A stretch of 64,000 nt of DNA. Source: Limnothrix sp. BL-A-16 (lineage in GTDB: Bacteria; Cyanobacteriota; Cyanobacteriia; CACIAM-69d). A program made the translations under genes and the position numbers. The stretch is taken from the NCBI GenBank assembly GCA_041937175.2, contig CP166615.1, positions 3,360,001 to 3,424,000 on the forward strand. Direction: 5' to 3'. Below, piece by piece: positions 33,014 to 34,624 of the stretch. Every line of letters begins with the position of its first letter. The first letter of the stretch is position 1. The notes under the pieces are model-generated. The model saw nothing but the letters and a program-made list of their open reading frames with translations, was not told the origin of the DNA and made no database searches.

Positions 33014-34249
33014 GTGACCGTAACCCCGCTCCGTTCCGCCACCTTCAATGCCCAAGTGCCCGATGCCCTCGGCCGGTTTGGCCAGTTCGGCGGCAAATAC
33101 GTTCCCGAAACCCTGATGCCCGCCCTGGCTGAGTTGGAGCGGGCCTACGAGCACTATCGGCACGACCCAGACTTTCAAGCGGAACTTCAAGGGTTGCTGC
33201 AAGACTATGTGGGCCGCCCCAGCCCGCTCTACTTTGCCGAGCGACTGACCCAGCACTATGCCCGGCCCGACGGCAGCGGCCCGCAAATTTACCTGAAGCG
33301 CGAAGACCTGAACCACACGGGCGCACACAAAATTAACAACGCGATCGCCCAAGCCCTGCTCGCTAAACGGATGGGCAAACAGCGAATCATTGCCGAAACC
33401 GGAGCCGGCCAGCACGGCGTAGCGACGGCCACCGTTTGCGCCCGCTTTGGCCTCGATTGCGTGATTTACATGGGCATCCATGACATGGAGCGCCAGGCCC
33501 TGAACGTGTTCCGCATGAAGCTGATGGGTGCAGAGGTGCGACCCGTGGAAGCGGGAACCGGCACGCTGAAGGATGCCACCTCGGAAGCGATTCGCGACTG
33601 GGTGACCAACGTGGAAACCACCCACTACATCCTCGGTTCCGTGGCTGGCCCCCACCCTTACCCGATGATGGTGCGCGACTTCCACGCCATCATCGGCGAA
33701 GAAACCCGCCAACAGTGCCAAGCCAAGTGGGGCGGACTGCCAGATATTTTGCTTGCCTGCGTCGGTGGTGGCTCCAATGCCATGGGGCTGTTCCATGAGT
33801 TTGTGACGGAACCAACCGTGCGGATGATTGGTGTGGAAGCGGCGGGCGAGGGAGCCGACACCGAAAAGCACGCGGCTACCTTGACCAAGGGCCGGGTGGG
33901 TGTGTTGCATGGGGCCATGAGCTATTTGCTGCAAGATGGTGACGGCCAGGTCATTGAGGCCCACTCGATCAGCGCCGGGTTGGACTATCCCGGTGTGGGC
34001 CCAGAGCACGCCTACTTGAAGGATGCGGGACGTGCGGAGTACTACAGCGTGACGGATCAGGAGGCGTTGGATGCCTTCCAACGGGTGTCGCGTCTGGAGG
34101 GAATTATCCCGGCGCTGGAAACGGCCCACGCCTTTGCCCATCTGGAAAAACTTTGCCCGACCTTGGACGGCAGCCCGAAGATTGTGATTAATTGTTCGGG
34201 CCGGGGCGATAAAGATGTGCAAACGGTAGCCAAGGTGTTGATGCCTTAG
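33014..34249 (+). CDS. trpB: Tryptophan synthase beta chain
   Basis: [52 protein letters not shown] start is inferred. Confidence 0.98.
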
Positions 34250-34391
34250 TGCCTGTCGTCAAATCGCCTGAAACCCTGATTCCACCGTTGCTGGATCGTG
34301 GGGGACAAGGGGCTTGAGCATCTTGTTACAACGACTGGGACATGGAAAATCAATCGTTTTCACCTGATCCTAGGAAATGACGACAGGCCCT
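34247..34391 (+). mobile_element. MITE family A copy; starts on the trpB stop codon, and its right terminus is the IS110 insertion site
   Basis: TAGTGCCTGTCGTCAAATCG...GACGACAGGCCCT, with the final A(G) displaced to 35716 after the IS. Confidence 0.85.
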
Positions 34392-34397
34392 TGTATG

Positions 34398-34624
34398 TGG
34401 AAGGCGGTGGAGCAGGAAGGTTAAGCTCAGGCATAATCGACCCTCTCCCATCCGGTAGAGACTCTGGACAGGCCCTGAAGCTCCGAAGCTTGAGGCTTAG
34501 ATTGAAGAGCCGACCGGAACCCGCCTTCCCGGACACTGCCAGTAGACTGAACAGTATTCAGAGTGACCGCTTGAGCGCTGTCACCTCGGATCAAGCAAGG
34601 GTAGCACTGGGTCAGTGACCGTCC
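34398..34624 (+). ncRNA. Predicted IS110 bridge RNA (target-binding and donor-binding loops)
   Basis: LTG ACAGGCCCT 34468-34476; RTG AGGCTTAG 34493-34500; LDG ACAGTATT 34551-34558; RDG CAAG 34592-34595 (or 34596-34599); each pair brackets a hairpin and is closed by a stem; ends are inferred. Confidence 0.85.

Follow-up and report, generated by a model that had tools for sequence, protein, structure and literature searches.

The insertion sequence described here is very probably an IS621-type bridge recombinase whose guides have been reprogrammed in nature, away from the end of a GTAG-type REP and towards the point where an IS5-type repeat meets its duplicated TA; comparison with its relatives would place this shift in at least three, and probably four, branches. 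As a single locus the insertion is ordinary; what deserves following up is the recurrence of natural reprogramming. What is new is a readable record of natural guide change, in which the scaffold and donor loop are near-fixed while the target class appears to have switched three or four times, one diagnostic right-guide base marks the class switch and the same left guide seems to have been reached twice.

The window, by which we mean the whole 64,000-nucleotide stretch analysed, carries the element with the following features.

34392..35715, + strand: IS110-group (IS621-like) element, intact, 1324 bp including one CT core
34647..35660, + strand: DEDD recombinase of 337 aa, matching PF01548 and PF02371, and NF033542 at 244 bits against a cut-off of 140
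35688..35715, + strand: right end, composed of TTGCGC, 17 nt and TATCT; its junction with the left end would give a -10-like TATCTT and so a putative junction promoter

The best PDB match of the recombinase is the IS621 transposase (E 6.5e-68), and residues D12/E67/D109/D112 and S249 align with D11/E60/D102/D105 and S241 of IS621 (IS621 residues from PMC11208158, in part). A 255-bp non-coding left end with a conserved scaffold lies upstream of the gene. The guides, too, are upstream of the gene and only 55 bp separate the stop codon from the end of the element, on which grounds the IS1111 group (IS4321-like) was rejected; by all features that can be tested on sequence, the element belongs to the IS110 group. 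The 6-mer located 17 bases ahead of TATCT starts with TTG in most relatives and is TTGACA in several. The genome contains four copies of the element, 100% identical over their whole length by blastn (C1:438685, 2154197, 3000078 and 3394392), and a metagenome contig, L073, encodes a recombinase 97% identical to that of the window. The element was absent from our searches of G001, G002 and G003, which are draft assemblies and as such can drop repeats. A circle junction was not found in the covered, and thus informative, parts of the contigs from runs X4, X11, X14 and X15 (four of the 24 runs listed), and one RNA-library contig, which may be DNA, spans 34388-34599.

The element lies directly beside a repeat, MITE-A, which had itself entered the end of a gene.

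34247..34248, + strand: left TA of the MITE target-site duplication, which also forms part of the stop codon TAG (34247-34249) closing the upstream PALP-family ORF 32918-34249 (PF00291)
34249..34390, no strand assigned: MITE-A copy of 142 bp with 12-bp terminal inverted repeats (34249-34260 and 34379-34390), IS5-type and non-autonomous
34383..34391, + strand: left target ACAGGCCCT, the MITE end directly before the IS, with the core CT at 34390-34391
35716..35720, + strand: right target AGGCC, i.e. the A of the duplicated TA followed by the original chromosomal flank (empty site CCTTAGGCC in G002, L217)

The CT core thus straddles the MITE boundary, taking its C from the end of the inverted repeat and its T from the duplicated TA. 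The MITE entered the TA of the upstream stop codon and starts with G, so that the stop of this gene, which we take to be trpB, was kept. An earlier note on this DNA had given the MITE about 146 bp, a length that holds when both TA copies are counted; the orthologous site in the congener G002 and in one X11 contig has a single TA and no MITE, from which it follows that the TA is the duplication and that the element proper measures 142 bp. An HMM built solely from the MITE interior recovered 61 full copies and 358 distinct ends in the genome; 57 end pairs of type TAGGGCCTGTCGTC are spaced 145-149 bp, TA included, and the window copy folds as a long hairpin (z -2.98). With ends TAGGG..TGTCGTCA, a TA duplication and YTAR sites (54 of the 61 full copies), MITE-A resembles the elements of NCBIfam NF033580 and their MITEs. 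We take these IS5 elements to be subgroup IS427. REP/REPIN identity for the target repeat was rejected, as it shows YTAG plus an inverted repeat, a partner about 140 bp away and a duplicated TA rather than a GTAG foot with a local palindrome. We class the target repeat as a true, non-autonomous MITE, for which no published name was found in the literature searched, ISfinder lying outside that scope.

The earlier note had also called this MITE self-propagating, a description that does not fit: it encodes nothing, and the genome retains only a short relic of the matching IS5 transposase (C1:1150890). Searches of this genome for an intact partner transposase, by paired ends, with PF13340, PF13358, PF01609 and PF01797, and by tblastn with the L070 and L154 proteins, yielded nothing beyond this relic. 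Across G001-G005, a locus with these IS5 ends was found only in G003, where L070 is a two-ORF IS5 element with the same ends as the MITE, inserted in the same palindrome and with both ORFs over the NF033580 cut-off. Ten of the 61 full copies have a neighbour at >=98% identity, so the MITE family moved not long ago. Seventeen full copies lie in the middle of the palindrome CAAGGGGCTTAAGCCCCTTG, which MITE-A also carries internally; nested and half copies arise because this sequence is both insertion site and MITE-internal. The palindrome that L070 uses also flanks another DDE element and builds nested arrays with 68-bp half units; it was seen at window 12659-62058 (families D6 and D7), at L070:957 and at G000:C1 ~280450.

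Upstream of the recombinase gene, the left end of the IS encodes a candidate bridge RNA, the parts of which are as follows.

34452..34612, + strand: bridge-RNA core with target- and donor-binding loops, limits approximate; the scaffold is conserved among 24 aligned relatives
34468..34476, + strand: left target guide ACAGGCCCT, equal to the left flank of all four copies and of L073; in relatives this block of columns varies with the flank
34494..34500, + strand: right target guide GGCTTAG (core TTAG at 34497-34500), complementary to CTAAGCC; guide and flank covary over 45 loci
34501..34502, + strand: handshake bases AT, beside the right target guide (handshake concept from PMC11208158, in part)
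34551..34558, + strand: left donor guide ACAGTATT, matching the right end of the element, ACAGTAT(CT), at 35707-35715; ACAGTAT is invariant in 24/24 relatives
34595..34601, + strand: right donor guide (G)CAAG, complementary to CTTG(T) over the circle junction, CAAGG being invariant in the alignment; the pairing would follow the IS621 model

The presence of the same nine-base word at the MITE end and in the guide, on which the earlier note was built, was confirmed. Both donor guides (ACAGTAT and CAAG) match the element ends and, being invariant in 24/24 relatives, offer no covariation. A right donor guide read as ATCAAG, one repeat further upstream, was dropped on alignment evidence. The consensus fold of the 24 relatives has 12 pairs, four of them with two-sided changes, and recovers the target-loop hairpin and the outer stem of the donor loop and not the other stems; the single-sequence folding energy of the region is no better than that of shuffles (z 0.57). 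At the donor-loop handshake (34600-34601), the window element and L073 have GG where the remaining 23 scaffolds of the alignment have GA; the two G might pair with positions 7 and 6 of the target, each of which is C.

All four genome copies sit at GA[C/T]GACAGGCC-CT-A[A/G], and removal of the 1324 bp restores GACAGGCCCTA[AG] at 4/4 sites, with no duplication beyond the core. A fifth insertion, in L073, is at a different locus, where it abuts the right end of a complete MITE, and has the same left guide. These five are the only insertions of the element with both flanks known, and as copies and kin they are not independent; 5/5 match the left guide at 9/9, which bears out the idea that the guide is aimed at the MITE-A terminus. 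The left guide is the commonest MITE-end variant (82 of the 358 ends, the next variant having 31), and random use of ends, computed from 82/358, would give four perfect genome insertions about 3 times in 1000. The further matches listed in the earlier note are present with the strand and mismatches given there, perfect at 61965-61973(-) and with one mismatch at 13091-13099, 53591-53599, 34248-34256(-) and 26786-26794(-). As evidence, however, the one-mismatch list has no weight, since the window holds 13 such matches against 15.0 expected and 72 of 100 shuffles reach 13, i.e. chance level. Nor do one-mismatch ends appear to serve as targets, all five insertions being perfect though so few ends are.

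Genome-wide, the expected enrichment of the guide word at MITE ends was found: ACAGGCCCTA occurs 90 times versus 5-8 expected under Markov models of order 2-6, and 74 of the 84 ACAGGCCCTA[AG] sites abut a match of the MITE-interior HMM, against a background of 0.34%. Several of the other ten are variant MITE ends; one of these variants, 192 bp long and carrying a REP as cargo, hosts a copy of the IS. The description of the target as dispersed and intergenic holds as well, with 357/358 MITE ends outside called genes, the gene caller being crude (3137 genes, 76% coding, so that it under-calls). The account of the guide in the earlier note stood for its left part and omitted the right guide GGCTTAG. 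With the same caller, 3 of the 84 ACAGGCCCTA[AG] sites lie inside genes versus 59 of the 69 left-guide-only sites, ACAGGCCCT[CGT], so it is the right guide that supplies most of the gene avoidance; a short right guide can thus decide whether targets fall in genes. Its complement CTAAGCC is the commonest 7-mer at MITE ends (91/358). After the core, ACAGGCCCTA sites in this genome have AA 54 times versus AG 30 times, the right guide being TTAG, and CTAG sites would be read through one U-G wobble.

An alternative to RNA-guided insertion is that the IS spread along with the MITE, by composite transposition or MITE-MITE recombination. In its favour, a single minor subfamily, with a central variant found in 13 of the 61 full copies, includes two of the four host MITEs (92.5% identical), and inverted-repeat-like ends stand on both sides of the IS in L073 and in one genome copy. 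The IS lies outside the MITE inverted repeats, however, and its four identical copies sit in hosts that differ (two 142-bp MITEs, the 192-bp REP-carrying variant and a compound with 68-bp duplications) and have right flanks that are all different, which makes this explanation extremely unlikely. In L073 and at G000:C1:2153983-2155590, the IS110 element is placed between inverted IS5-type ends, a whole MITE on the left and half a MITE on the right, and such a unit might be movable by an IS5 transposase.

It was further suggested in the earlier note that insertion may immobilise the MITE. Since the 12-bp inverted repeat is left whole and only the flanking TA becomes TT, immobilisation is unsupported. 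The stronger proposal, in which the insertion disables a MITE or IS5 end and the IS110 element acts as a suppressor of the other element, could call on this altered base pair beside the end and on the relative L154, located where a complete IS5 gene ends. With the inverted repeat intact, only 4/358 ends occupied and no intact partner transposase found in this genome, we consider it unlikely. One empty MITE end with a perfect left target, at G000:C1 ~1639676-1639695 (-), continues with TGTAT, which equals the start of the IS left end over five bases, and then with unrelated DNA; this could be the scar of a former or aborted insertion, the probability by chance being ~0.08 over 82 perfect ends. 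In run X11, which is possibly the source run of the genome, the contig with the IS also begins with a MITE terminus. For two of the other genome copies, the orthologous G002 sites hold repeats that are different or incomplete, and so give no date for these insertions.

Relatives were collected from 401 genomes of the class, 34 of which had a match at E 1e-60, and from three families searched at E 1e-90 (matches in 7/90, 2/57 and 15/173 genomes), as well as from genome contigs and metagenomes. Scaffold and donor loop are nearly fixed across the family. We tallied the 50 closest of the loci collected, leaving out L183, L184, L198, L206 and L214, in which an end or a readable guide is lacking, and in 43 of the remaining 45 the left guide is at <=1 mismatch from the flank. 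The right guide is GTAG in 29 loci, with AC next in 29/29; it is YTAG (CTAG or TTAG) in 15, followed by AG (9), AA (4), AT or GG and by AC in 0/15; and it is TCAG in one. In 14 of the 15 YTAG loci, which represent seven genomes in four families plus L073 with copies and kin included, an IS5-type partner repeat stands 129-214 or 912 bp upstream, the exception being L126, with a decayed partner only. The word REP as applied here to AC-flanked targets refers to palindromes with a leading GTAG, which visual inspection showed for part of these loci (for the GTAG REP definition in cyanobacteria see PMC6006769, in part). L183 (G420), sister to one end-targeting clade, has the right guide TTAG and the left guide CTTTACCCT and its left end is missing.

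Single genomes display the same agreement between guide and flank. G237 has the guide ACGCGCCCT at a 129-bp MITE and the guide ACACGCCCT beside the end of a complete IS5 gene (L154); the two left guides are one base apart and each matches its own flank. The MITE-end 12-mer has 35 copies in G237 and 105 in G376, versus 3 and 0 for the control. The G475 element has a left guide identical to that of the window element and the right guide CTAG, 18 of 22 matching ends there being followed by AG, and the shared end variant is abundant in that genome (22/26 matches). The closest readable relatives of the window element, L017 and L018 (63-64% identity), have the same scaffold with the guide ACGCACCCT/GTAG, the 11-mer of which has 0 copies in this genome; the nearer relatives P0001-P0003 (80-93%) are without available flanks. 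Such natural before/after pairs make bridge-RNA target acquisition directly testable. At L018 ~1204-1246, there is a 42-bp tandem duplication of the target end and the IS left end.

A guide that was merely inherited or had drifted could match MITE ends by coincidence and without selection. CCCTA is common to REP and MITE ends, and the target used by IS621 in nature, ATCAGGCCTAC, is similar (PMC11208160, in part), so that few mutations lie between the targets. Against this, the guide of the window element corresponds both to the commonest end variant and to the commonest flank, the sister guide is without any site in this genome, and the same target class recurs in three or four clades, with an identical left guide in G475, where that end variant is abundant. 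We regard coincidence as very unlikely.

A careful tree of 30 proteins was built with two outgroup rows, duplicates, fragments and distant relatives being left out. The window element and L073 are sister to L017/L018 (support 100/99), L126/L128/L186 nest with L129 (99/99), L205 nests among AC-type elements (100/100), and L193/L194/L195/L203 form a fourth clade, the placement of which has support 88/73. Four is the fewest target-class changes on this tree. On a 37-row quick tree, a single clade of ten end-targeting rows was rejected (p-AU 3e-77), a group defined by target sequence after two of its clades had appeared apart. The switch to MITE ends probably took place in at least three branches, a fourth being likely. 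AC flanks prevail among more distant relatives as well, and parsimony over this sample would set the direction as REP to MITE.

MITE-end targeting might also have arisen once and then been passed among recombinase lineages by recombination of the bridge RNA. The identical left guide of the window element and G475 would suit such a history, as would the horizontal movement of IS110 elements and our failure to find this element in either congener searched. When the guides are masked, however, the scaffolds track the protein tree: L203 is nearest L193/L195/L194/L130, L126 nearest L128/L186/L129 and L205 nearest L200/L199/L197, while the window scaffold scores best with the REP-targeting L017/L018 (59-61.5), by a slight margin over a MITE-targeting element of another clade (55.5). 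A single origin is quite unlikely on this evidence, and we favour repeated switching. Two congeners without a detected IS110 element do carry the MITE; arrival of the element by transfer fits the data, since the sister guide is without a site here and the element was not found in these two congeners.

We propose that, through natural mutation, the guides gave up one target, the REP palindrome end ...CCCT-AC, for another, the place where inverted repeat and TA duplication join, ...GGCCCT-A[A/G]. By analogy with IS621 (PMC11208160 and PMC11208158, in part), the element would excise as a circle, the bridge RNA would be expressed from a promoter completed at the circle junction, and a tetramer would recombine the circle with the target at CT through RNA-DNA pairing. 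The left guide would read the last eight bases of the inverted repeat plus T, and the right guide would cover CT, the duplicated A and AGCC, one half of the palindrome that the MITE prefers as insertion site. The outcome would be about 84 landing sites, nearly all intergenic, a presumable benefit. A repeated switch would be explained by the CCCTA shared between REP ends and IS5-type ends, as it needs one right-guide change and two or three left-guide changes. A tentative extension, to which we give somewhat less than an even chance, is that cyanobacterial IS621-type bridge RNAs track host repeats in general, with repeated hops from REP to IS5 or MITE by way of CCCTA, the commonest end and flank chosen, and identical guides reached by convergence. 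If that holds, the family would offer a natural series of repeated guide reprogramming, one mobile element living on the footprint left by a second and possibly travelling inside IS5-bounded composites. On our main reading, the elements described here would be natural cyanobacterial bridge recombinases with multi-copy intergenic landing sites.

The mechanism as such is already known, as is the landing of IS110-family elements in other mobile DNA, and for the IS1111 group the use of transposon ends or MITEs as targets has been published. Partridge and Hall are said to have described in 2003 that IS4321 and IS5075, of the IS1111 group, target Tn21-family inverted repeats; these elements reportedly insert inside the repeat, whereas the window element leaves it whole. 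They differ further in belonging to the IS1111 group, with the RNA downstream and subterminal repeats. The IS1111 of Coxiella burnetii is likewise an IS110-family element that lands in a MITE family, 20 of its 21 copies lying in QMITE2, but at a GTAG REP inside the MITE rather than at the MITE end; it is a member of the IS1111 group and was described without guide analysis (PMC5896051, in part).

IS621 of E. coli, of the IS110 group, inserts in REPs at the target given above; the window element shares with it the DEDD and serine recombinase, the upstream bridge RNA with a 9-nt left and 4-7-nt right guide, the CT core, the handshake bases and the dispersed intergenic repeat target, but reads an IS5-type inverted repeat, TA duplication and flank instead of a REP (PMC11208160, in part). 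ISEc21 also belongs to the IS110 group and has an upstream guide RNA aimed at another mobile element, but its target is the coding sequence of IS3-family transposases; natural redirection has been noted for ISMch6 (PMC11187229, in part). Among cyanobacteria, the IS110/IS492-family IS1594 of Anabaena belongs to the same broad family, the likeness being drawn from its description, and differs in inserting in REP-like repeats (cited in PMC3184786, in part). IS1594-like REP targeting is probably the state from which the present guides derive. PMC12288879, as far as its text was covered, deals with a MITE made from IS110 ends, which is a different matter.

For four guide 9-mers, the supplements of PMC11208160 hold no case of this target among the matches listed, and the covered part of the preprint 10.64898/2026.08.14.744561 makes no mention of MITEs or IS5. 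In the literature covered, to which ISfinder, most subscription papers and the target logos of PMC11187229 do not belong, neither the targeting of IS5-type ends by IS110-group elements nor a repeated REP-to-MITE switch was found described.

Other repeats were seen in the window and genome. A second MITE-like family (window 25996-26132 and 55171-55307) has the ends AGAGGATGTCTGAAAA, the same central palindrome and an end 11-mer that occurs 62 times, and is not the target of this IS; it adjoins a short tandem repeat of AATCAACTCAAC-type units at 25906-25974. GTAG-type REP-like palindromes lie at window 31558-31581 and 35777-35806, and the 24 in the genome of the form GTAGGG...CCCTAC include none with the sister guide sequence. 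The genome has a single Y1 transposase gene (C1:1721528), with no obvious flanking REPs. Finally, long diverged direct repeats at window 50237-51795, 6154-10457 and 62163-63739, with spacings of ~790, 2400-2570 and 1277 bp, are probably tandem gene duplications.
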